Assembly (NCBI GenBank): GCA_964394405.1
Contig: CAYMVY010000001.1
Location: 428,585-492,584, forward strand
Reading direction: 5' to 3'
Length of the DNA: 64,000 bases
Source: an uncultured Gammaproteobacteria bacterium
Lineage (GTDB): Bacteria > Patescibacteriota > Patescibacteriia > Magasanikbacterales > UBA922
The notes below the pieces were generated by a model, which saw nothing but the letters and a program-made list of their open reading frames with translations, was not told the origin of the DNA and ran no database searches. Positions 491-53,594 of the stretch are shown here, one piece after another. How positions within the stretch are numbered: the stretch's first letter is position 1; the number at the start of each line of letters is the position of its first letter. The position numbers and the translations under genes are program-made.

Positions 491-1816
491 TCAACCAACA
501 AGATGTCCACGTAATTCTCCTGACATGAAAATAGAGCCTGTCGCAAGAATACAATCATGTGGTTTCGCGATCCCCTTAGTATACTCGTATGCGTCTTTTG
601 GATCAAGGAATAACTGTATTTTGCACGCAGGCAATTCACGTCGTATATGAGTACGAATGACGTCCATGTCAGCAACTTTGCGGAACGGATTAACACTGTT
701 TCGTGTAATGGAAATGCTCGCGGGTTTTAAACTGAGTAATTGTTTGAGCATGCCCGGAACATCTTTATCTCCTGAGAAACTGATAATCAGGTGAAGTTTT
801 TTGATTCCAAAGAGCGGAAGTAAGGCGGCAGTGGTCTCGGTGGTAGATCGTATTTTATCTCTATTATGCGCACCATCAAGTATGGTAAGAGGTGTGGTCG
901 AGATTACCTCCATTCGAAGAGGTTGGGTAGTAGAGGCGAGTCCTTTGATGATGTGTGCTAGATCAATGCCTAGTTTTTTTGCAGCTTCAATACAAAGTAC
1001 TGCATTATGAATTTGATGTACTCCATATGCAGTGAGAGTAAACACGGTGCTATCGTAGGTAAAGGACACTCCTTTTTTGGTAGTCGAAACATCAGTGATA
1101 AGTGGTTTGGTGATTCTGGTGTAGGGGACATGTTGTTTGCGTGCCTCTGCTTCGATAATCCGTGCAATACGAGTATTTTTTTCAGAAGTTATAGCACACT
1201 TGGTTTTCTTGGTAATAATTCCCGCTTTTTCATATGCGATTTCTGATTTATTATTTCCAATAATTCCCACATGATCGAGTCCAATATTAGTAATAATGGC
1301 AATATCTTTGTGTGGAATAATATTACTTGAGTCGTATCTTCCACCACACGCAACTTCCATGACTGCATGTGTCACGCGGTGTCGTGTGAAAAATATAAGA
1401 CCAATTGCCTCAGTGAGTTCGAAAAAAGAAATCATGTCGTATGTTGTAGTTCTCATGTATTCATCAAGCTTTGGTTTGAGGTATTCTACGATTGACACAA
1501 ATTCATCCTCAGTCATGTAGGCATCTCCGATCTTCCATCGCTCAATAATACTACTCGGATGTGGAGAATAGGTAGAGCCGACTCGGTATCCTGCTGCATG
1601 AAGAATAGTATGCATGTATGCAGTGGTAGAGCCTTTGCCACTGGTGCCGGTTACATGGATATAGTGCTTTATTTTTTTCTCTGGGTTCCCGAGAACATCA
1701 AGAAAAGCTTGGAGACGATTCAAATACCATCCGCATTCACGAGGGTTTGCCATGTATTCTTTTCTCGGAATGTTCGAAAGCGATAGAATCCAATTGTATG
1801 CTTCATCAAAATTCAT
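491..1816 (-). CDS. folC: Mur-ligase family folylpolyglutamate synthase / dihydrofolate synthase-like protein
   Basis: 441 aa. P-loop VTGTSGKGST, DHxG and ILDGAHN motifs are typical of FolC/Mur ligases. Confidence 0.75.
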   Translation of the reverse strand: MNFDEAYNWILSLSNIPRKEYMANPRECGWYLNRLQAFLDVLGNPEKKIKHYIHVTGTSGKGSTTAYMHTILHAAGYRVGSTYSPHPSSIIERWKIGDAYMTEDEFVSIVEYLKPKLDEYMRTTTYDMISFFELTEAIGLIFFTRHRVTHAVMEVACGGRYDSSNIIPHKDIAIITNIGLDHVGIIGNNKSEIAYEKAGIITKKTKCAITSEKNTRIARIIEAEARKQHVPYTRITKPLITDVSTTKKGVSFTYDSTVFTLTAYGVHQIHNAVLCIEAAKKLGIDLAHIIKGLASTTQPLRMEVISTTPLTILDGAHNRDKIRSTTETTAALLPLFGIKKLHLIISFSGDKDVPGMLKQLLSLKPASISITRNSVNPFRKVADMDVIRTHIRRELPACKIQLFLDPKDAYEYTKGIAKPHDCILATGSIFMSGELRGHLVG

Positions 1817-1905
1817 AACTCAAAATTTAAAACTCAAAGCTCAAAACTATAACTTAAATCTAAAAACTTTTTTAATTGTAGTTTTGCGTTTTGACATTTG
1901 AGTTT
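1817..1905. repeat. AT-rich imperfect palindromic intergenic repeat (family copy 1: aaaactcaaagctcaaaactataactTaaa...gttttgacatttgagtttttag)
   Basis: Shares 20-30 nt blocks with copies at 11212, 24505, 30665 and 53109. Left arm aaaactNaaa..., right arm ...tttgagtttttag. Confidence 0.6.
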
Positions 1906-3009
1906 TTAGTTTTTTATAATGTACATCATATTCCCCACATTTTGTATCCGACCCTTCATCTCAAGTACTGTAAGCATGGCAATCACTGTGGGTCCGGGGA
2001 GGGTGGATTTTCGTGTAATTTCGTCAATATGGAGTGGTTCTCGACTAAGTAACTGGATTAACTGTCCTTCGTCATCCGTGTCTGGAATAGTTTCCTGTAC
2101 CCTGACGTGCCGTTCAAATGCATTGAGGTTCAGATTTTCAAGTATATCATCAGCACTTCGCACGAGGTATGCTCCATCACGAATAAGCTTGTGTGGCCCA
2201 GCACCTGTAGGAGATGTGAGTGGATGAGGCACCGCATATACATCACGCCCATATTCGAGAGAACACGAGGCAGTGATGAGCGCACCTGATTTTTCTGGAG
2301 CTTCGATAACGAGTGTTGCAAGAGAGATTCCTGCGACAATCCGGTTGCGTTTTGGAAAGCTGTAGGTGGTAGGAATTGCTCCTGGGGGGTATTCTCCAAT
2401 AAGAGCACCATTCCTGTCAATGATAGTCTCTCCGAGATCATAATGTGCACGAGGGTACACTGATTGTCGATCAATGCCTGAGCCGAGCACTCCGATCGTG
2501 GTGCCACGAGCATCAATTGTAGCTTTGTGTGCAACGCCATCAATACCAAGTGCTAATCCACTGATAATTTCAACGCCATGCACCGCAAGCTCACCGACGA
2601 TTTCTTCAGTCATTTGTTTTCCATATGTTGTCATTTTTCGAGTGCCGACAACGGCGATTCGAGGGCGGGAATTATCAATAATTCCACGGACAAAGAGTGC
2701 AACGGGCGGATCAAAGATTTCTTTGAGTAGTGGAGGATATTGGGAGTCTTCAATTGAAATAATTCGTATCTCGTCTCGCTCAAGTATATTTTGATACTCT
2801 TCTTCTCTAAATGAATTTCTCCAATGGAGAAATTCATTTGCGCTATTCTCATCAAATCCTGCTTTGATAAGTTCTTCAAATTCAGCAACCCAAACAAACT
2901 CAAAATTACTAAAAGCATTTTTGAGTATACGATATTTAGAAAGAGTGAATTTTGGATACAGACACAAACGATACAGAGCCTCCATGTAACGTGCTAAATC
3001 AATGTCCAA
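1906..3009 (-). CDS. dprA: DNA processing protein DprA (Smf)
   Basis: 367 aa. Rossmann-like DprA core (IAVVGTR...GLALGIDGVAH...SGALITA) plus a C-terminal winged-helix-like tail. Confidence 0.85.
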   Translation of the reverse strand: MDIDLARYMEALYRLCLYPKFTLSKYRILKNAFSNFEFVWVAEFEELIKAGFDENSANEFLHWRNSFREEEYQNILERDEIRIISIEDSQYPPLLKEIFDPPVALFVRGIIDNSRPRIAVVGTRKMTTYGKQMTEEIVGELAVHGVEIISGLALGIDGVAHKATIDARGTTIGVLGSGIDRQSVYPRAHYDLGETIIDRNGALIGEYPPGAIPTTYSFPKRNRIVAGISLATLVIEAPEKSGALITASCSLEYGRDVYAVPHPLTSPTGAGPHKLIRDGAYLVRSADDILENLNLNAFERHVRVQETIPDTDDEGQLIQLLSREPLHIDEITRKSTLPGPTVIAMLTVLEMKGRIQNVGNMMYIIKN

Positions 3010-7381: not shown

Positions 7382-7645
7382 ATGGAGGGATTTGTATATA
7401 TTCTAGAAGATGATCAGGGTAAATTCTATATCGGTAGTACTACAGATATAGAACGAAGATTTGCTCAACATACGTCTGGTCATACTCAAACTACACGAAG
7501 AATGGGAAGGTTAACTTTGCGTTTAGTACAGAAATACGATACCTTAGAGCAAGCTCGTTCAGTTGAAAAATCGATTAAAAAATTAAAGAGAAAGGATTAT
7601 ATAAAAAAGATGGTAGATGAACAGTACATTAAAATCAAACCTTAA
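7382..7645 (+). CDS. GIY-YIG nuclease family protein, YhbQ/UPF0213-like
   Basis: 87 aa. FVYILEDDQGKFYIGSTTDIERRFAQHTSG aligns with E. coli YhbQ ([30 protein letters not shown]). Its stop codon directly abuts the tRNA-Arg 5' end. Confidence 0.8.
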   Translation: MEGFVYILEDDQGKFYIGSTTDIERRFAQHTSGHTQTTRRMGRLTLRLVQKYDTLEQARSVEKSIKKLKRKDYIKKMVDEQYIKIKP

Positions 7646-9096: not shown

Positions 9097-11211
9097 ATGT
9101 CTACGATTCATCTCACCACTCCAGTCGCTGCGCTTCATCGGGTTGGTAAAAGTCTTGAAAAAAAATTGACTCAGCTTGGAATACACAGCGCGCGTGATGT
9201 ATTATTTCATTTTCCGTTTCGATATGAAGACTATCGTTCAGTTGTTCCAATTGAGGGGGTAATGCCAGGAGTTGATCTCACGATCAAGGGCACCGTTGAA
9301 CTCATTGCAAACAAACGTAGTCCACGTAAACGCACCATGATCACCGAAGCTGTGGTACGTGATGATACTGAACAAATTCGGGTGATTTGGTTTGGGCAAC
9401 CATTTATTGCCAAAGTATTGCACGTGGGAGATGAGGTATATCTCTCAGGATCAGTAAAGGAGGATATGTTTGGAGTCCATATGATGGGTCCGGCATATGA
9501 AAAAGTTCGTGAAGACAAAGAATCAACACATACAGCGCGAATCGTACCCATGTACCCGCTGACTTCCGGAGTGACGCAGAAACAAATGCGTTTTTTAGTG
9601 GAACAAATACTACCGCTTGCTGCTAATATTAAGGAATGGATTCCGAAGAGTATTCTCACTGCTAATCAGCTGATACCACTGAATGAAGCAATTCGTTTGA
9701 TCCATTTTCCAGGATCGCATGAAGAGCGGATTGCTGCAGAGCGTCGACTCAAGTTTGGAGAACTATTTGTATTGCAATTGCGTGCTGAGCTGATTCGGCA
9801 GTCAAATCTTCTTCATGCAGCGCCAAAAATTGAATTCAAGGAAAAAGAGATTAGGGAGTTGGTCCAATCCTTGCCATTTCAATTAACCGTTGATCAAAAA
9901 AAATCAGCTTGGGAAATTTTTCAAGACATTGGTCGGGGAACCCCAATGAACCGGCTTCTACAGGGTGATGTAGGTTCGGGGAAAACAATTGTTGCAGGTA
10001 TGGGTGCGTATGCGAGTTTTCTGAATGGATTCCAGACCGCCATTATGGCACCGACGGAAATTTTGGCGACACAGCACTATGAGACTCTAACAAAACTATT
10101 TGGTGATACGATAAGTATTGGACTTCTCACAGGTTCTCAAGTCGAAAATCGAAAGTCGAAAGTTGATACAGTCGAAAGCAGATCGAGAAAGTTAGAGAAA
10201 CAAGAAGTAAAAAAACAGATTAATGAAGGGGTAATTGATTTAGTTATCGGTACTCACGCATTATTGACTGAGGATACACAGTTTCACCAATTAGGATTGG
10301 TGGTGATCGATGAACAACATCGATTTGGAGTGGAGCAACGAAAAAAAATTCGTGATAAATCTGGTATGGAAGGAATGTACCCTCATTTTCTCTCCATGAC
10401 CGCAACACCTATTCCACGATCATACGCGCTCACATTATATGGAGACCTCGATGTTTCGTATATCAGGACAAAGCCAGCAGGGAGAAAGGATATTATTACA
10501 AGGCTGGTTGAGCCAAGCAAACGAGATAAGGCATATCAATTTATTCGAGAACAGGTTCAGAAGGGGAGGCAGATATTTGTTGTCTGTCCTTTGATTCAGG
10601 AGAAAACAAAAGAAGGCGAAAATATAAGTATAGTATCAGAAAAGAAAACAGTATTGTCTGAGTACGAAAAGTTATCAACGAAAATTTTTCCTGATTTACG
10701 AGTCGGCTACCTGCATGGAAAAATGAAGTCAAAAGAAAAAGAAGGAATCATGAAAAAATTTATAGCAGGAGAAATTGATATACTCGTCTCAACTTCAGTA
10801 ATTGAAGTCGGAGTCAATATTCCCAATGCATCGATTATGATGATTGAGGGAGCTGAGAGATTTGGATTAGCACAGCTACATCAATTTCGTGGTCGTGTAG
10901 GTCGAGCAGAACATCAGTCATACTGTATTTTGTTCACTGAGAACGATAGTGTGAAATCACAAGAGCGATTACAATATTTTACCAAGACACTTGATGGATT
11001 TGCGCTTGCAGAATATGACCTTGAAACCAGGGGTCCGGGAGAAGTATATGGCACAGCACAGAGTGGAATGGAAGAGCTACGTCTGGCAACCATGCGTGAT
11101 CAGGATCTGATTCGAGCTGCACGAGATTCTGCTCGAGGCATTGATTTTATACAATATCCAGAATTGAAAGAGCGAGTAAAAGAGTGGGAGGAGAGAGTGC
11201 ATATGGAATAA
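9097..11211 (+). CDS. recG: ATP-dependent DNA helicase RecG
   Basis: 704 aa. Wedge domain plus helicase motifs (LLQGDVGSGKT, DEQHRFGV, QLHQFRGRVGR). Confidence 0.9.
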   Translation: MSTIHLTTPVAALHRVGKSLEKKLTQLGIHSARDVLFHFPFRYEDYRSVVPIEGVMPGVDLTIKGTVELIANKRSPRKRTMITEAVVRDDTEQIRVIWFGQPFIAKVLHVGDEVYLSGSVKEDMFGVHMMGPAYEKVREDKESTHTARIVPMYPLTSGVTQKQMRFLVEQILPLAANIKEWIPKSILTANQLIPLNEAIRLIHFPGSHEERIAAERRLKFGELFVLQLRAELIRQSNLLHAAPKIEFKEKEIRELVQSLPFQLTVDQKKSAWEIFQDIGRGTPMNRLLQGDVGSGKTIVAGMGAYASFLNGFQTAIMAPTEILATQHYETLTKLFGDTISIGLLTGSQVENRKSKVDTVESRSRKLEKQEVKKQINEGVIDLVIGTHALLTEDTQFHQLGLVVIDEQHRFGVEQRKKIRDKSGMEGMYPHFLSMTATPIPRSYALTLYGDLDVSYIRTKPAGRKDIITRLVEPSKRDKAYQFIREQVQKGRQIFVVCPLIQEKTKEGENISIVSEKKTVLSEYEKLSTKIFPDLRVGYLHGKMKSKEKEGIMKKFIAGEIDILVSTSVIEVGVNIPNASIMMIEGAERFGLAQLHQFRGRVGRAEHQSYCILFTENDSVKSQERLQYFTKTLDGFALAEYDLETRGPGEVYGTAQSGMEELRLATMRDQDLIRAARDSARGIDFIQYPELKERVKEWEERVHME

Positions 11212-11312
11212 AAACGCAAAACTTAAAGTTCAAAACTTAAAACTATAACTAAAAATTCAAAACTAGCTGTTGAATTTAAAGTTTTTAGTTTTGAACTTCA
11301 CGCTTTTCCCCA
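11212..11312. repeat. AT-rich palindromic intergenic repeat (family copy 2)
   Basis: aaagttcaaaacttaaaactataactaaaaa is near-identical to a 31-nt block at 24517-24547. Confidence 0.6.
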
Positions 11313-11341
11313 GTTTGCATTGACAAATTGGGGTTTTTTGT
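11313..11341 (+). promoter_or_regulatory. consensus sigma70 promoter TTGACA-N17-TATACT in front of high-GC ORF A
   Basis: ttgaca 11313-11318, tatact 11336-11341. Confidence 0.5.
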
Positions 11342-11425
11342 ATATACTCTCGCGCATACCTGTATCCTAGATAGGAAAGGTATGTACCGTCAACACGCGA
11401 AAGCGTTTACATAATCGGGGAACCC

Positions 11426-11677
11426 ATGCCTTCTTTCCATATTCCCAAGAATGCCCGCATCCTGCCGAATGGTAGGACCGAGATCGCCAAGCACGTCGAG
11501 TACGGCCAGGACCAGCGCGGTCGAGACCGCATCTTCGTGGGGTCGACTTCCTTCACGGTCGCCGAGGCCCTCAAGTCCGGCTTCATCTCGTCGGAGCGCG
11601 ACCGCAACGCCACGGGTGGTGGACTCCACTACCACCCGAACAGCGGGGTCGCGCGGGGCCGTGTGTCCACGGTCTGA
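11426..11677 (+). CDS. hypothetical protein, high-GC cassette ORF A (83 aa)
   Basis: Codons almost all end in G/C, in stark contrast to neighbours. Preceded by a 5' UTR with small hairpins (catacct...aggtatg; acgc-gaaa-gcgt). Confidence 0.55.
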   Translation: MPSFHIPKNARILPNGRTEIAKHVEYGQDQRGRDRIFVGSTSFTVAEALKSGFISSERDRNATGGGLHYHPNSGVARGRVSTV

Positions 11678-11914
11678 GTCTGGCTTCTAGCCGACGCCCA
11701 TCGGCTCTGTGCCAGGAGACGCAGGCAGCCGCCTATCGCGACTGTCCTGCGTCTCAACAAATTCAAAAAACCTCTCGAATCACGCGATGAATCTCATCTT
11801 ATATAGATATGGGAGATATCGCGAGGAGGACGAGAGGTTTTTTGTTTTCAGACTTGATTTTTCCCTCATTTTAGGTTAGTGTAGCTATTACACCTGGTTC
11901 AGGGAGGACCATCA

Positions 11915-12124
11915 ATGACCATTTTAGCGTGGAATGCTGAGAAGAAGTGCTGGAACATTGTTCCTGAAGCGGCCAAATCGACCACTTCGATCGAGACAAG
12001 TGCCGACATCAGGCCGGCCATGGAGAAACTGTTCCGGAATCCGGACGAGCGGCAACGAGCCGTGATCAAACTGTTCGCCGAATTCGCCAAAACGGAGAGT
12101 CTGCCGATCCAGCTCGCCGTATAG
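11915..12124 (+). CDS. hypothetical protein, high-GC cassette ORF B (69 aa)
   Basis: GGGAGG RBS 6 nt upstream of ATG. GC-rich coding. Followed by the hairpin aaactacctgc-aaatca-gcaggtagttt. Confidence 0.5.
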   Translation: MTILAWNAEKKCWNIVPEAAKSTTSIETSADIRPAMEKLFRNPDERQRAVIKLFAEFAKTESLPIQLAV

Positions 12125-12234
12125 CGGGTCATATGGGAAGTGACAATCCCAGCGCCAGGTTTGGTTGGAGATACTTCGGTATCTCTGGCCCTACCCCTAC
12201 CCCAAACTACCTGCAAATCAGCAGGTAGTTTTAA

Positions 12235-13566
12235 TTAGGTCTTTCGTATCAATTCCTCAATATTTTTGACTTCAATTAATCGAACTTGGGAATATTCAGT
12301 AGATTTTTTTCCTGGAGGAGTGATAATCCGCTTCATGCCCAATTCAATTGTTTCTTTTATTCTCTTTTCCTGATGCTGTACTGATCGTACTTCACCGCCC
12401 AGACCGACTTCACCAAATACAATGGTATCAGTACCGAGAGATTTATCTTTGAACGAGCTCGCAATTGCAAGGCATATTGCAAGATCAGCTGCAGGTTCTT
12501 GAATTTTGATCCCCCCGACAATATTAAGGTGGATATCATATTGGGCTAGGGTGAGGCCTGCACGTTTTTCAAGTACGGCGATAAGTACATGCAATCGATT
12601 GAGGTCAAACCCGCTTGCTTTGCGCACCGGATAACCAAACGTCGTTTTATGAACGAGTGCCTGTACTTCGACCAAGAGTGGGCGAGTACCCTCCATGATA
12701 CAAGTTACTACATTACCGGGCATGTCTTCGCCACGTTCACGAAGTAAAGACGCTGAGGGGTTAAGAACGGATATAAGACCTACTCCTTCCATTTCAAAAA
12801 TGCCCACTTCATCTGTTGCACCAAACCTATTTTTCACTGCGCGTAAAATTCGATAGGTGTGGTACTGGTCTCCTTCAAGATAGAGTACTGTATCAACAAG
12901 GTGTTCAAGTGTTTTTGGTCCGGCAACTACCCCGTCTTTGGTAACATGTCCAATAAGAACAATAGGAATTCCAGATTGTTTTGCCGTATCGAGTAGTAGT
13001 GTGGTACATGCTCGGACTTGGGATACTGATCCTGCCTCACCTTGGACTTGTTCGCTTGAAATAGTCTGTATTGAATCAATTACTGCCAGTTGGGGCTTAT
13101 GTGTCTGAATAGTTGCAATGATTGCCTCAACAGATGTTTCATTCACGAGCGAAAGAGTATTCGAAGTAATGTGCAATCGGTCTGCACGCATTTTCACCTG
13201 CCCGACTGATTCCTCTCCCGAGATATAGAGCGAGGAGGGGATTGCGGATGCGAGCTGGAGTGCAAGTGTAGATTTTCCAATGCCAGGCTCTCCTCCGATC
13301 AATATCAAGCTACCAGGCACAATTCCGCCACCAAGCACGCGATCAAATTCTGGAATTTTTGTTTTGGCACGTGTAGTGCTATCTGAGGCAATACTCGAAA
13401 GTGTTTGGATAGATGCGGGTAGAACCTTGGTCTGGTCAGATTTTTTTTCTTGTGTGGCAAGGGTTTCGCCAACAGTACCCCATGATCCGCACTCGAGGCA
13501 TCTGCCAACCCACTTCTGGTATTGCGCGTCACATTTTGAACAAACGAATAAGAGGTGGTTTTTCAT
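12235..13566 (-). CDS. radA: DNA repair protein RadA (Sms)
   Basis: 443 aa. N-terminal zinc ribbon CxxC...CxxC, Walker A GGEPGIGKST, KNRFG motif, Lon-like C-terminal domain. Confidence 0.9.
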   Translation of the reverse strand: MKNHLLFVCSKCDAQYQKWVGRCLECGSWGTVGETLATQEKKSDQTKVLPASIQTLSSIASDSTTRAKTKIPEFDRVLGGGIVPGSLILIGGEPGIGKSTLALQLASAIPSSLYISGEESVGQVKMRADRLHITSNTLSLVNETSVEAIIATIQTHKPQLAVIDSIQTISSEQVQGEAGSVSQVRACTTLLLDTAKQSGIPIVLIGHVTKDGVVAGPKTLEHLVDTVLYLEGDQYHTYRILRAVKNRFGATDEVGIFEMEGVGLISVLNPSASLLRERGEDMPGNVVTCIMEGTRPLLVEVQALVHKTTFGYPVRKASGFDLNRLHVLIAVLEKRAGLTLAQYDIHLNIVGGIKIQEPAADLAICLAIASSFKDKSLGTDTIVFGEVGLGGEVRSVQHQEKRIKETIELGMKRIITPPGKKSTEYSQVRLIEVKNIEELIRKT

Positions 13567-30664: not shown

Positions 30665-30787
30665 GTAATATGGTTAAACTCAAAACTCAAATGTCAAAAC
30701 TAAAAACTATGACTAAAAACTTAAAAGTTTTGAAATTTAAGTTTCAATTTTACGTTTTGAGTTTTTAGCTTTGAGATTTAATAAAGT
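30665..30787. repeat. AT-rich palindromic intergenic repeat (family copy 4) inserted between pheS and pheT
   Basis: Left arm aaactcaaaactcaaatgtcaaaactaaaaactatgactaaaaa, right arm gttttgag tttttagctttgag. Separates the normally coupled pheS and pheT by 123 nt. Confidence 0.6.
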
Positions 30788-40307: not shown

Positions 40308-40380
40308 AAACCGTTCGCTATTCCTCCATACATGTTTCCAAAATATGTTAGAAACATATGTGGTGTGCGAACGGTTTTTT
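40308..40380. terminator. long bidirectional terminator hairpin between convergent genes
   Basis: aaaaaaccgttcgc ... gcgaacggtttttt with an inner palindrome acatgtttc...gaaacatatgt. Confidence 0.5.
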
Positions 40381-40445
40381 GTTACGCAGACCACGCTCAT
40401 GTGGGGGTCCGCGAATAGAAATCATGTCTCCTCCAGTATTGTTGA

Positions 40446-41135
40446 TCAGCCGATCTGCATGGCGATGAGGGCCTTGGCACGCTGTCGGTCGACGAACTGC
40501 TTGCCGTGTCCGATCTCGGTGTTGACGGGGACACCATCCTTGCAGAATGGACACTCATCCTCGGTCCAGTTGTTGAGGTCGAGATCGTAGAGTGTCGCGA
40601 GGAAGGGCACGCCGAGTGTATCAGCGGTGACCTTGCTCATGCTCCGATTCACGATCGCAGCGACACCGAGGACCGTGCCACCGAGGGCGCGCACTGCATC
40701 GATGACTTTCTTGACCGACTGCCCAGTCGTGATGACGTCTTCTGCCACGAGAACGTCGTTGCCAGAGACGAGGGACTGGTAGCCGCGATTGAACACGAAC
40801 GACCCATCTGCCGTCTTCTCAGCGAAGACGGAATGAATCGGGAGATTCGTGCGGATGTACTGGCGCAGGTGAAACCCGAGCCAGGGGGAGAGGATCGCTC
40901 CTCCCATGGCAGGGCCGAGCACGACCTGGGGAACCTGCTTCAGTTGGGTGGTTGTGGCGAGGTGTCTGATGCACTCCTCGGAGAGCGCCTGACCCATGAG
41001 AGTCAGGAGGTCTGGCCTGGTGAAGAGTTTGTTCTTATCGACGTAGATGTCACCATGGCCACCCGCCGCATAGACGAAGTGTCCGGTGGTGATGGCGCCG
41101 ATCGCCTGGATTCTCTCTTGAGCACTCTGTCTCAT
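40446..41135 (-). CDS. type I phosphoribosyltransferase, orotate-PRTase-like (high-GC cassette)
   Basis: 229 aa. PRPP-binding VLVAEDVITTGQS. C-terminal WTEDECPFCKDGVP resembles PyrE-like proteins of high-GC lineages. GC-rich codons. Confidence 0.7.
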   Translation of the reverse strand: MRQSAQERIQAIGAITTGHFVYAAGGHGDIYVDKNKLFTRPDLLTLMGQALSEECIRHLATTTQLKQVPQVVLGPAMGGAILSPWLGFHLRQYIRTNLPIHSVFAEKTADGSFVFNRGYQSLVSGNDVLVAEDVITTGQSVKKVIDAVRALGGTVLGVAAIVNRSMSKVTADTLGVPFLATLYDLDLNNWTEDECPFCKDGVPVNTEIGHGKQFVDRQRAKALIAMQIG

Positions 41136-41269
41136 GTGTATCTCCCTATTGTGTGTGGAGGCATGGATGCCCGCCTTCTATATACGTTATTTTGTACTAT
41201 TCGTCAATATATATACCAGCTATGGTATACGTTTTTAGTTATAAATTAGCCAAATTTACTCAGTTAGGA

Positions 41270-41298
41270 TTGACATTTCTATAAAAATATGCTACACT
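41270..41298 (+). promoter_or_regulatory. consensus sigma70 promoter TTGACA-N17-(TGc)TACACT
   Basis: ttgaca 41270-41275, tacact 41293-41298. AAGGGGG RBS precedes ATG 41366. Confidence 0.5.
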
Positions 41299-41365
41299 GT
41301 TCCGTTCTAAGTAGCTGGGCAACGAGCCTTCCTACCTCTAGGACATCAACCTTAAGGGGGTGTTC

Positions 41366-41731
41366 ATGACTGCACTGAAGGCGAAGACCTATTTCGTTCC
41401 GTTCGCCATCTCGCACTATCTCGAGTTCTACGAGCGCGTGTTTGCGGGTCAGATGATCCGCGTCTACATCTACAGCCTCGGACTTCGCTGGGTGCTCCCG
41501 AGAGAGCCCAGGAACAACGAGAAGGAGAAGAAGCTCGAGTTCGAGTTCCAACTCGTTCCCGAGCCCGGAGAGACGACCCGAGCTCGGAACCGGTGGTTCG
41601 AGGGCGAGTTCCTGTGGGAGACCTGTGACGGTTTCCTGAAGGTGGAAGCCGAGCTACTCCGCCCTCTCGGGAAGGTCGAGCTCGCTCCGTGGATCGCCAA
41701 AGAGGCGACCGTGGAGCACAGACACGTCTGA
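41366..41731 (+). CDS. hypothetical protein, high-GC cassette ORF C (121 aa from MTALKAK)
   Basis: GC3-saturated codons (AAG GCG AAG ACC TAT TTC GTT CCG ...). No family recognised. Confidence 0.55.
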   Translation: MTALKAKTYFVPFAISHYLEFYERVFAGQMIRVYIYSLGLRWVLPREPRNNEKEKKLEFEFQLVPEPGETTRARNRWFEGEFLWETCDGFLKVEAELLRPLGKVELAPWIAKEATVEHRHV

Positions 41732-41809
41732 GAGCTCCAGCTCTCTCTGACCCGACGCGTGCGACATTGTCCCTGGACAATCGATCGCACACGCGTCGGG
41801 GACAATCTA

Positions 41810-41846
41810 CCCCGCCTTTCGCGAAAGGCGGGGTTTTTGTTTTTTC
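41810..41846 (+). terminator. rho-independent terminator after ORF C (preceded by a ~50-nt palindrome cgacgcgtgcga...tcgcacacgcgtcg)
   Basis: ccccgcctttcgcgaaaggcggggtttttgtttttt. Confidence 0.6.
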
Positions 41847-41954
41847 AAATAAAAAATCCTTTATTTCAAGGATGCTATATGTATCTGGAATGTGGGACAC
41901 GGTGCAACACACAGCACTCTCGAGCGAGCGTGTGGGTTGCACCGTGGTACGGCG

Positions 41955-42297
41955 TCAGTGGCTCGGGGTAGAGGAATTCGAACCTTTCCTGCTCCACACG
42001 ATGTTGTGGTACCCGGTGCAGTATCCGTGGCAGACCACCCTCGGCCCGCCTACCCTAGGTTGGGCGCTGGCCTTTTTGTGGTACACCACCTCACCCGTGA
42101 GCGCACCAGGACAGAGCTCCCAATCGGGATGGTAGGTCCCGTCGGGAGAAATCGTGGCGAGACCAGAGATGGTGCGTCCGTTCTCCTGGAAGAGAACTGC
42201 ATTGTGCAGACCCTCCCTGAAGTGGCCAGTGATCATGAGATGGTCGTCCTTTCCGGCGACACTAGTCTCGGGCTGGATCATGAACTTGTTTGTCATG
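41955..42297 (-). CDS. hypothetical protein, high-GC cassette ORF D (start at MTNKF inferred from codon-usage break)
   Basis: From MTNKF downstream the codons are C/G-ending, while the upstream 36 codons of the ORF-track ORF are AT-rich. Competing + strand ORF 41892..42410 is Arg/Ser-rich, suggesting antisense artefact. Confidence 0.4.
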
Positions 42298-42461
42298 TTG
42301 ACGGTATCCCTCCTATGTGTGTTTCCGCCTCCCAGACGGATGTTGAGCTGATAACCTTGGGCAAGGTCAGGGAGATAAAAACGACAACTAGTATCGTCTC
42401 TACTCACTGATCTGTTATATACCAGGAAACATGAACGCCCTCCACAAGGAGGGCGTAATAA

Positions 42462-42537
42462 TGGTGACCCCGGTGGGGATCGAACCCACGACCATTGGCT
42501 TAAAAGGCCACTGCTCTACCAGCTGAGCTACAGGGTC
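42462..42537 (-). tRNA. tRNA-Lys (anticodon TTT), CCA encoded
   Basis: Reverse complement GACCCTGTAGCTCAGCTGGTAGAGCAGTGGCCTTTTAAGCCAATGGTCGTGGGTTCGATCCCCACCGGGGTCACCA. Followed (3') by hairpin cgccctcc-acaa-ggagggcg. Confidence 0.85.
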
Positions 42538-53190: not shown

Positions 53191-53594
53191 TGGTGGAGAT
53201 GCCGGGAATTGAACCCGGGTCTAGACGGGTTACCCCTACAGTCTACATGTGTGTCGATATTTGGGGTAGTAACATGCGATTAAAAAATATCGCAAAATGT
53301 CGCATGCACTCATATGCTAGGTTTCAACAAACTGCGGATATGATACACAGCTTGTCTACACTCGAGCGTGGGTTGGCACCGCGAGCCCGCTATCGAGTAT
53401 CGCGGGTGCGATGGCATGTAGGTTTTAAGCTACAGCAGGAGCAAAGCTAGATACACTGAAAGCTTTCGCTACAGCGCTCTTAGCTCGCTCTAACAAGTTT
53501 GCACTTGTAGGTTTGCCTGAGAGTATACAGAGATCAGGCACTCTGACATGCATATAAAAGATAACGAGTCCGCCTATCGAACCCTGTCATCCCC
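53191..53594 (-). ncRNA. ssrA: tmRNA (ssrA)
   Basis: Minus-strand 5' end GGGGATGACAGGGTTCGATAGGCGGAC matches the tmRNA 5' consensus. 3' end ...CCCGGGTTCAATTCCCGGCATCTCCACCA is the tRNA-like T-arm plus acceptor plus CCA. Internal ORF-like tag ends ...AKAFSVSSFAPAVA-TAA. Immediately downstream of smpB. Confidence 0.75.

Follow-up and report, generated by a model that had tools for sequence, protein, structure and literature searches.

The region between the convergent recG and radA genes was analyzed in a 64-kb stretch of DNA (the window; WIN in the comparisons below) from a genome of Candidatus Magasanikbacteria (Patescibacteria). Downstream of recG lie a predicted promoter that overlaps the recG terminator hairpin, a folded 5' leader, an open reading frame (ORF) of 83 amino acids (aa) designated ORF A, two hairpins, an AT-rich spacer, and a 69-aa ORF (ORF B) that is followed by radA. 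Comparisons with related loci and contigs, which are designated by L-numbers, reveal a conserved frame that holds unrelated small GC-rich genes and not a one-off foreign insertion. At this site the ancestral elements are the promoter, the leader and the two hairpins; the payload alone changes between species.

The frame aligns in the seven closest species (L003 to L008 and L059), where the recG terminator and promoter, the P1 stem-loop of the leader with its CCGTCA[AC] motif, the base of hairpin 1 and the whole of hairpin 2 can be matched. Each of these frames holds one ORF with a GC content at third codon positions (GC3) of 0.70-0.87, and the ORFs are mutually unrelated outside three small families. 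Family A comprises the ORFs of WIN (83 aa) and L005 (80 aa), which are 53% identical; family X those of L004 and L008 (139 aa, 58% identical); and family Y those of L003, L007, L059 and L102. The L006 payload is a singleton. Profile-profile comparison of families A, X and Y with hhalign gives no support for common ancestry, and the idea that they are one hyper-diverged family was rejected on this basis; Pfam has no match to any payload family. A C-terminal motif that seemed to join family Y to ORFs of L030, L025 and L035 found no support in a hidden Markov model search. Between L003 and L004 the flanks are about 83-91% identical, and the sequence from just past the -10 box to hairpin 1 cannot be aligned. 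The cassette families do not track phylogeny, since they are discordant with the RecG tree, ((L059,L007),(WIN,(L005,(L004,(L006,(L003,L008)))))), in which the sister taxa L003 and L008 carry different families, Y and X, respectively. Leader types and ORF families combine as a mosaic.

The same kind of difference is found between strains at a sister module of the window, which encodes a 123-aa GC-rich ORF (Table 1). In L111 the flanks of this module are 98.7-99.6% identical to those of the window, and window positions 41313-41750 are swapped for unrelated DNA (L111 238-640) with a different ORF of 110 aa and GC3 0.75. The swapped segment starts in the leader, about 15 nt past the -10 box, and takes in the 123-aa ORF with its stop codon. 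Homology restarts exactly at the 3' hairpin, a geometry identical to that of the recG-radA slot. This difference is a recent within-species cassette swap. Because the frame is conserved, the payloads are unrelated and a swap is seen at strain level, the locus behaves like a minimal mobile element, or replacement islet.

Table 1. Features of the recG-radA slot, of its flanks and of the sister modules, in window coordinates. RBS, ribosome binding site; SD, Shine-Dalgarno; fold z, folding z-score; GC1/2/3, GC content at the three codon positions.
Feature	Position	Strand	Remarks
recG terminator hairpin and T-run overlapping promoter	11308..11348	+	TTGACA-N17-TATACT at 11320-11348; -35 box 11320-11325, -10 box 11343-11348
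5' leader	11355..11425	+	P1 stem-loop 11355-11384; CCGTCAA 11387-11393; GAAA-tetraloop hairpin 11395-11406; weak RBS GGGG
ORF A, 83 aa	11426..11677	+	GC-rich ORFan, variable payload of the slot; GC1/2/3 = 0.60/0.51/0.82
Hairpin 1 (GAGACGCAGG...CCTGCGTCTC)	11716..11755	+	10-bp stem; fold z = -6.9
Hairpin 2	11764..11844		13-bp stem; fold z = -7.6; bidirectional terminator-like
AT-rich spacer	11845..11914	+	RBS GGGAGG 11902-11907, 7 nt ahead of ORF B ATG
ORF B, 69 aa	11915..12124	+	GC-rich species-specific ORFan; GC1/2/3 = 0.50/0.43/0.70
ORF B 3' end	12163..12231		UUCG-tetraloop hairpin 12163-12190; terminator hairpin 12204-12231
recG	9097..11211	+	left flank of slot; Pfam RecG_wedge, DEAD, Helicase_C
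radA	12235..13566	-	right flank of slot; Pfam matches; 318 relatives
AT-rich palindromic dispersed repeat	11209..11306		outside cassette; REP/MITE-like; long hairpin, fold z = -4.1
pyrE-like phosphoribosyltransferase	40446..41135	-	GC-rich, GC3 0.76; TIGR01367 126.7 bits, under the 150 cut-off
SD-bulge hairpin after phosphoribosyltransferase	40310..40375	-	module 40310..41135
Sister module with 123-aa ORF	41270..41838	+	promoter TTGACA-N17-TACACT; GC-rich ORF 41360-41731; two 3' hairpins
Third GC-rich gene	63459..64000		coiled-coil with C-terminal hydrophobic segment; GC 0.64; cut by window end

The slot is widespread among relatives. A RadA scan with one genome per species returned 80 loci, the closest of which are Candidatus Magasanikbacteria or Patescibacteria metagenome-assembled genomes (MAGs) with 75-89% identity. 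Of these loci, over 60 keep recG and radA convergent, with 9 bp to >4 kb between the two genes, and many gaps hold a segment much richer in GC than the genome. Analogous GC-rich inserts occupy the same recG-radA site in related species. The same plan at the same site is found in more distant Magasanikbacteria (L009, L011-L013, L019, L030, L043, L047, L048 and L063) and consists of a strong promoter, a small ORF that is GC-richer than the genome, and a long hairpin, often with an AGGAGGA bulge. In some of them two or three units stand in tandem. Across 49 gaps there are 80 candidate ORFs in 67 sequence families, although some of the candidates are surely spurious. A metagenome scan with the hairpin 2 motif gave 25 matches, 24 of them due to chance and one a true unit, L102, in which promoter, leader, family-Y ORF and both hairpins lie in another context, beside a gene judged rmuC-like by eye. 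Exact-protein look-ups of RecG and RadA for further strains found nothing on record. Many of the MAGs (e.g. L003, L005 and L006) bear the title "uncultured Gammaproteobacteria bacterium"; their RadA and RecG are 75-84% identical to those of the window and their gene order is the same, and the titles look like mislabels.

The predicted promoter matches the consensus at 11 of 12 positions. The hairpin that resembles an intrinsic terminator of recG, CCCCAGTTTG-CATTGA-CAAATTGGGG and a T-run, spans 11308-11339 (the stem-loop itself, 11308-11333), and the -35 box lies within its loop and 3' arm. The hairpin-promoter block TCCCCAGTTTGCATTGACAAATTGGGGTTTTTTGTATATACTC, which includes TTGACA, is near-invariant in eight species, TATACT is invariant, and the block is recognisable in L102. 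In the leader, all nine homologous units show the CCGTCA[AC] motif and a P1 stem of altered sequence, the pairings being assigned by eye and unscored. Hairpin 1 has a conserved base and a covarying apex, with compensatory changes over nine sequences. Hairpin 2 is composed of an A-run, a stem and a T-run. Its interior is conserved, its 3' arm carries an SD-like AGGAGGA bulge, and its sequence is conserved across nine units; the window and each related locus have a single copy. RNAalifold predicts 31 pairs in hairpins 1 and 2 together, 9 of which show compensatory changes. Searches of the island with Rfam gave nothing at the gathering threshold and, at E values up to 5, only spurious matches of microRNA type to the hairpins. 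The spacer has no convincing promoter of its own; a weak TTGATT-N17-TAGTGT is the only candidate, found by eye. The 3' end of ORF B has a fold z of -5.6 when read on the + strand (-4.9 on the - strand), and its hairpin at 12204-12231 can terminate ORF B as well as radA. Together, the 5' stem-loop, the GC-rich body and the 3' hairpins would give a stable, autonomously expressed mRNA.

High GC is limited to certain segments. The genome has 42% GC and a GC3 of 0.34±0.03. The window as a whole has a GC content of 0.42, and its 34 ORFs of at least 200 aa have a mean GC3 of 0.367, native ones lying at 0.29-0.45. The island at 11376-12225 has a GC content of 0.55, with a maximum of 0.63. The rise is confined to ORF A (0.64), its 3' untranslated region (UTR) with hairpin 1 (0.65) and ORF B (0.54); the promoter, the leader (0.47), hairpin 2 (0.40) and the spacer (0.41) have a native-like base composition. 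A sequence-only reading of the window had described a switch to GC-rich coding at about 11.39-12.2 kb, two more modules of this kind in the window, a promoter, a folded leader, 10-bp and 13-bp stems and a GGGAGG RBS, a terminator shared with radA, and two proteins that it could not recognise. Each of these descriptions agrees with the computed GC, GC3 and folding values and with the searches reported here: the further modules are at 40401-42275 and from 63426 to the window end, and neither protein has homologues beyond the lineage. The nesting of the promoter in the recG hairpin had been missed.

ORF A has a single homologue. An exhaustive phmmer search of 1.84 billion cluster representatives gave only P0004, the same-slot allele of L005 (53% aa identity, GC3 0.81), and a word-indexed protein search gave nothing. 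The start codon, RBS and N-terminus are conserved in L005, the third codon position is the least conserved, and the ratio of nonsynonymous to synonymous divergence (dN/dS) is about 0.4. The AlphaFold2 model of ORF A has a predicted local distance difference test score (pLDDT) of 61, and Foldseek found no fold match to it. Public gene calls on the identical L001 contig omit ORF A (L001 9512-9760 corresponds to window 11426-11677). In AT-rich contigs, GC-rich ORFs are probably called too rarely, and protein databases probably hold too few of them; such an annotation bias would not hide homologues in GC-rich donors.

ORF B has been seen only within its own species (L001 and L002), and the word-indexed search returns ORF B itself alone. 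Its AlphaFold2 model consists of helices (pLDDT 59). In L002, a 98%-identical strain, ORF B has a single silent difference; the whole ORF B module differs at 3 of 428 nt, compared with 32 of 1332 nt in radA (Poisson P = 0.008), which suggests recent spread or strong constraint. With a strong RBS and no good promoter of its own, ORF B may be expressed from transcripts that read through hairpin 2. The interval from hairpin 2 to radA is taken, in relatives, by an AT-rich gene on the opposite strand, labeled by eye from motifs as DUF559-like in L003, L004, L008 and L013 and as GIY-YIG-like in L005 and L006. ORFs A and B, the ORFs in alternative frames and five cassette proteins of relatives have no match in Pfam, PHROGs, NCBIfam or PADLOC. 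The two ORFs do not resemble a type II toxin-antitoxin pair: they are separated by a 237-nt spacer that includes a terminator, B is missing in L005 despite the A homologue there, and Pfam and PADLOC gave no matches.

Small genes for GIY-YIG and DUF559-like nucleases recur beside tRNA genes and in the variable slot. The GIY-YIG gene of the window (about 7382-7645) is supported by Pfam, and the copies in relatives are labeled by eye. They may be freestanding genes akin to those for homing endonucleases, promoting turnover in their surroundings.

The payload ORFs are most probably real genes. Their periodicity (GC3 >> GC1 > GC2) is that of genes in a genome of 60-65% GC, the third codon position is the least conserved within families, and four of the five within-family pairs have a dN/dS of about 0.35-0.44; the remaining one, L007-L059, is the most diverged and has a value of 0.97. 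The cassettes evolve fast, with dN of 0.30-0.47 compared with 0.02-0.18 for recG and radA in the same genome pairs. The bodies of ORFs A and B fold with z = -1.5 and -0.9, respectively. Averaged over 13 cassette ORFs, z is -2.0; ordinary genes in GC-rich genomes average -1.2 and native genes -0.05. This excess is weak, and the idea that RNA structure is under strong selection in the coding bodies was rejected. The whole transcript has a fold z of -7.8, and this signal stems from the hairpins. The cassettes would encode dispensable accessory proteins under selection that is of conflict type or relaxed. Their fast evolution, frequent replacement and dispensability point to a possible conflict-type or host-interaction role.

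Two further GC-rich regions of the window resemble the slot. The hairpin downstream of the pyrE-like phosphoribosyltransferase (PRTase) gene is built like hairpin 2, with an A-run, a closing stem, a 5-nt internal loop on the 5' side, a GGAGGA-type bulge on the 3' side and a T-run. These are the sole two hairpins of that design in the 64 kb, and both are located 3' of GC-rich genes; on the opposite strand their bulges read as anti-SD-like UCCUCC. A PRTase homologue in L110 is 66% identical, has GC3 0.70 and AT-rich flanks, and is followed by the same hairpin. Distant homologues (40-46% identical) are ordinary pyrE genes adjoining pyrF, and few homologues exceed 46%. The PRTase gene has no pyrF neighbour and occurs in a group thought to lack nucleotide synthesis. 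The third GC-rich gene, at the window end, has a TTGACA-N17-TATTAT promoter in the 63109-63458 region and an unusually long leader of about 320 nt. A GC-rich ORFan at 41955-42407 (- strand; listed as 150 aa, GC3 0.66) lies directly beside tRNA-Lys (42462-42537). Features of a genomic island are lacking at 11.2-12.3 kb, where there is no tRNA, integrase or att repeat; only the 40-42 kb module adjoins tRNA-Lys.

GC-richness is a lasting property of the cassette pool and is not the residue of a recent import from GC-rich bacteria. Across loci the gap ORFs have a mean GC3 of 0.60 and the housekeeping genes one of 0.39, with a correlation of r = 0.16 between the two. Housekeeping and gap-ORF values are 0.20 and 0.73 in L063, 0.26 and 0.80 in L043, and 0.24 and 0.87 in L028; in a further example the housekeeping and cassette values are 0.77 and 0.90. 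The synonymous divergence (dS) of the cassettes is 0.7-1.6 in the pairs WIN-L005, L004-L008 and L012-L013, about equal to that of recG and radA, and both members of each pair keep a high GC3 despite it (about 0.8 in WIN-L005 and L004-L008). In L003-L007 the silent sites of the cassettes are less diverged than the saturated ones of host genes, which together with the tree discordance fits transfer between lineages. A donor search through about 15 billion proteins, phages, plasmids and viral contigs found no GC-rich donor. IMG/VR scans with A, B, the PRTase, the 123-aa ORF, a 180-aa ORF and the X and Y alignments gave no match, nor did blastn and tblastn against phages and plasmids. The cassettes favor CTC over CTG and GTC over GTG, as do native genes; GC-rich controls of Chloroflexi type do not. 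Polarised changes in the PRTase number 6 from GC to AT and 5 from AT to GC, where decay at third positions would give about 6:1, a weak test given n = 11, a distant outgroup and P = 0.01-0.12. The candidate causes of the GC-richness are a separate circulating gene pool, selection on the mRNA in situ and biased gene conversion; the least likely origin is that the genes were simply imported not long ago from a GC-rich bacterium.

The explanation we hold to be probable, by a modest measure, is that the recG-radA region is a replacement hot spot at which autonomously expressed accessory genes are exchanged by flank-mediated cassette replacement. The conserved frame consists of a predicted sigma-70-type promoter nested in the recG terminator, the 5' stem-loop leader and hairpins 1 and 2. 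Its payload is a single small protein-coding gene, with ORF A as one allele common to one other species, and ORF B is a second GC-rich gene in the adjacent position, where relatives carry small nuclease-like genes. Magasanikbacteria would take up DNA and trade cassettes through homologous recombination within this frame. A model with silent cassettes, like that of pilE and pilS, was rejected, as no silent copies of other cassettes are found in the window or in the fetched loci.

The closest known counterpart is the minimal mobile element of Neisseria (2007). In both, conserved flanking genes (here recG and radA) hold unrelated whole-gene cassettes in different species and also between strains, the latter in the sister module with its flanks of about 99% identity. 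The slot has no mobility gene and no terminal or flanking direct repeats (its neighbours are a methyltransferase-like ORF, recG, radA and a 694-aa ORF), and the competence gene dprA is present on the same contig. The two systems differ in that the homology arms here are the promoter, leader and hairpins and not only the flanking genes, that the payloads are single small ORFans, all of them rich in GC3 whatever the host composition, and that the pattern spans a whole candidate phylum-level group instead of the strains of one species. Exchange by transformation is a supposition here.

Several points weigh against cassette replacement at a fixed slot. Transcription, translation and function of the payloads are predictions from sequence, and exchange is deduced from one genome per species and two strain pairs. 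Recombination in the flanks alone leaves unexplained how an unrelated ORF first lands exactly inside the frame. L102 indicates that the whole unit is able to move to another place, an event outside the predictions of a fixed-slot model. The dS values of the cassettes in WIN-L005, L004-L008 and L012-L013 also fit plain vertical descent, the balanced-substitution test carries little weight, and the extra RNA structure is weak as a cause of the GC-richness. Because gene finders miss such ORFs, the near-absence of ORF A from protein databases is partly an annotation bias.

A broader proposal, which we put forward tentatively and on balance doubt, is that Magasanikbacteria have dedicated expression slots and that the swapped genes form a separate compositional compartment, with GC3 of 0.7-0.9 at a host GC3 of 0.2 or of 0.77. 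If so, the payload genes escape standard gene finders and are without relatives elsewhere. There would then be either a hidden GC-rich pool of mobile genes (for instance an unrecognised episome or virus), or cassettes tuned to be expressed in, or directed against, a GC-rich host cell, or an active mechanism that holds these mRNAs or DNAs GC-rich.

A rather unlikely alternative is that the cassettes are resident genes whose GC content is maintained in situ, either by selection on the mRNA (for example for resistance to A/U-directed RNases, for high stability or for the absence of internal T-runs and promoters) or by GC-biased gene conversion where recombination is frequent, as at a hot spot. 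They would then owe their composition to this locus and not to a separate gene pool. This alternative agrees with cassette replacement on the anatomy of the locus and differs from it only on the cause of the composition. The retention of GC3 near 0.8 after silent-site turnover comparable to that of host genes is what it would predict, as are the balanced polarised changes, the CTC and GTC preference shared with native genes, and the PRTase and its 66% homologue, which stay at GC3 0.70-0.76 within AT-rich flanks beside the same hairpin. All 13 cassette ORFs have a negative fold z, and raised dN/dS and the use of Arg over Lys are expected products of biased conversion. A 5'-terminal stem-loop and 3' hairpins, both present here, are typical of stabilised mRNAs. 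The folding excess over ordinary GC-rich genes is nevertheless small, and a GC3 shift of 45 points is far above the effects generally reported for biased gene conversion in bacteria. The pyrE-like gene is metabolic and equally GC-rich, and selection at the mRNA level is not obvious there. Unrelated cassettes between near-identical flanks would still have to be imported from outside.

The 5' stem-loops and "STAB-SD" elements of Gram-positive bacteria are mRNA stabilisers, and the predicted transcript resembles them in having a stem-loop at its very 5' end and, in the G-rich P1 arm and the AGGAGGA bulge of hairpin 2, SD-like sequences at which initiation would not take place. Here the SD-like element is located in a 3' terminator hairpin, and the likeness may be one of design only.

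The sequence-only reading took the region for a compact, self-contained two-gene module, recently acquired or otherwise foreign in composition; spelled out, this would be a single recent transfer from a GC-rich donor. The deviant composition and the self-contained transcription units stand, and the composition is indeed typical of a genome of 60-65% GC. The restriction of ORF B to its species, the low divergence of its module between strains relative to radA, and the occurrence of the nearest outside relatives of the PRTase in pyrF-pyrE operons, one of them on a contig of 60% GC, would also fit such a transfer. Recent acquisition is not supported, since L005 has a same-slot homologue with the same GC3 and a dS near the species divergence, and the frame is ancestral in seven species; as to the proposal that homologues of like composition at the same position in relatives would make the block ancestral, this is the case for ORF A, so that it applies in part. 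The grouping of A and B as one cassette is not supported either, because they are separate units with a terminator between them that do not co-occur in relatives. In addition, no donor was found in the searches described above, and the Leu and Val codons are host-like. A single transfer is improbable.

Capture by an integron-like system, in which a recombinase encoded elsewhere would insert promoterless ORFs between an attI-like promoter site and an attC-like hairpin, is decidedly improbable. Integron cassettes involve the integrase IntI, the attI site, the Pc promoter and attC hairpins. The slot shares with them a resident promoter that would drive an exchangeable promoterless ORF, a long imperfect 3' hairpin and, in some relatives, short arrays of two or three units. 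In two independent slots the payload borders are sharp, just after the promoter and just before such a hairpin, and in two slots SD-bulge hairpins follow GC-rich genes. However, no recombinase is found among the neighbours of either slot. The hairpin belongs to the site and remains while the ORF changes, whereas attC would move with the cassette. By eye, there is no RYYYAAC/GTTRRRY-type core and no repeated junction motif, the hairpin ending instead in an A-run and a T-run. The junctions and the mosaic of leader and ORF types are as homologous exchange predicts.

It is scarcely credible that the region is non-coding, i.e. a structured RNA or long UTRs in which the ORFs are by-products of the scarcity of stop codons in GC-rich DNA. 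Four frames are open over 11390-11690, the transcript is strongly folded, the ORFs lack homologues and their structure predictions are of low confidence. These observations are outweighed by the three-base periodicity (GC3 0.82 against GC2 0.51 in ORF A), by within-family divergence that falls mainly on third positions (dN/dS is below 1 for four of the five pairs), by the retention of the start codon and RBS between WIN and L005, by the weak folding of the ORF A body and by the blank Rfam result. An assembly chimera or contamination by GC-rich reads, which the sequence-only reading had proposed to check and which the abrupt change in composition might suggest, is for practical purposes refuted, given that L001, an independent Logan assembly, matches the window at 100% identity for 4.9 kb from recG through A and B to radA, that L002 has the ORF B-radA junction, that the GC-rich ORFs adjoin a promoter and hairpins of native style without a break, and that seven other species have the same architecture. 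The L002 contig begins at window position 11807 and so breaks off in the loop of hairpin 2; such a break would be expected from alternative upstream cassettes in the population or from a drop in coverage at the hairpin.

Cassette replacement at the slot also shares features with two other kinds of variable locus. Replacement-type flexible islands, or hypervariable regions, of marine bacteria extend over many kb, usually have a lower GC content and carry genes for surface structures. They resemble the slot in having non-homologous genes at the same position in close relatives, an atypical composition and a content suspected to be conflict-related; the unit here is a single gene of 70-170 codons with a higher GC content and a fixed UTR frame. 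Phage morons are independent transcription units that are spread horizontally between phage genomes (PMC3594210). Like a moron, the slot combines a single ORF with a sigma-70-type promoter and an intrinsic terminator, and it has a deviant composition and an accessory character. Unlike a moron, it lies between recG and radA and not in a prophage, has no PHROG match and no viral relatives, and a swap exchanges the ORF and leaves the promoter and terminator in place as parts of the site. No description of GC-rich cassettes or codon-usage anomalies in these bacteria was found in the literature, and the slot is apparently an undescribed form of gene-cassette replacement.

Bacteria of the candidate phyla radiation are thought to live on other cells; their genomes are tiny and streamlined, and their accessory variation is poorly known. 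The slot would provide them with a compact and apparently widespread way to vary accessory genes, through fixed frames at conserved sites and single-gene payloads that are exchanged fast. Since gene finders miss at least some of the cassettes, part of the variable gene content is probably missing from current catalogues. The stable GC disequilibrium (GC3 of about 0.8 in genomes of 0.2-0.45, with silent sites turned over) offers a handle on the causes of base composition, for which mutation bias, biased gene conversion and mRNA selection are candidates. Should the cassettes prove to encode factors for defence or host interaction, a search for such factors could start from the slots.

The AT-rich repeat downstream of recG is one of four copies in the window (1813-1913, 11209-11306, 24507-24607 and 30673-30773), each about 97 nt long and directly after a stop codon. 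It is present 3' of recG in L004 and missing from L003, L005, L007 and L008, and therefore behaves as an insertion of the REP/MITE type (repetitive extragenic palindrome or miniature inverted-repeat transposable element). Elsewhere in the window, an ordinary transfer-messenger RNA gene is located at 53191-53594 (- strand; Rfam 102.8 bits) and encodes the tag peptide ANLLERAKSAVAKAFSVSSFAPAVA. A 1016-aa ORF at 25236-28286 (- strand) has degenerate tandem repeats at 27325-28009 with a period of about 87 nt (29 aa), suggesting a repeat-domain protein.

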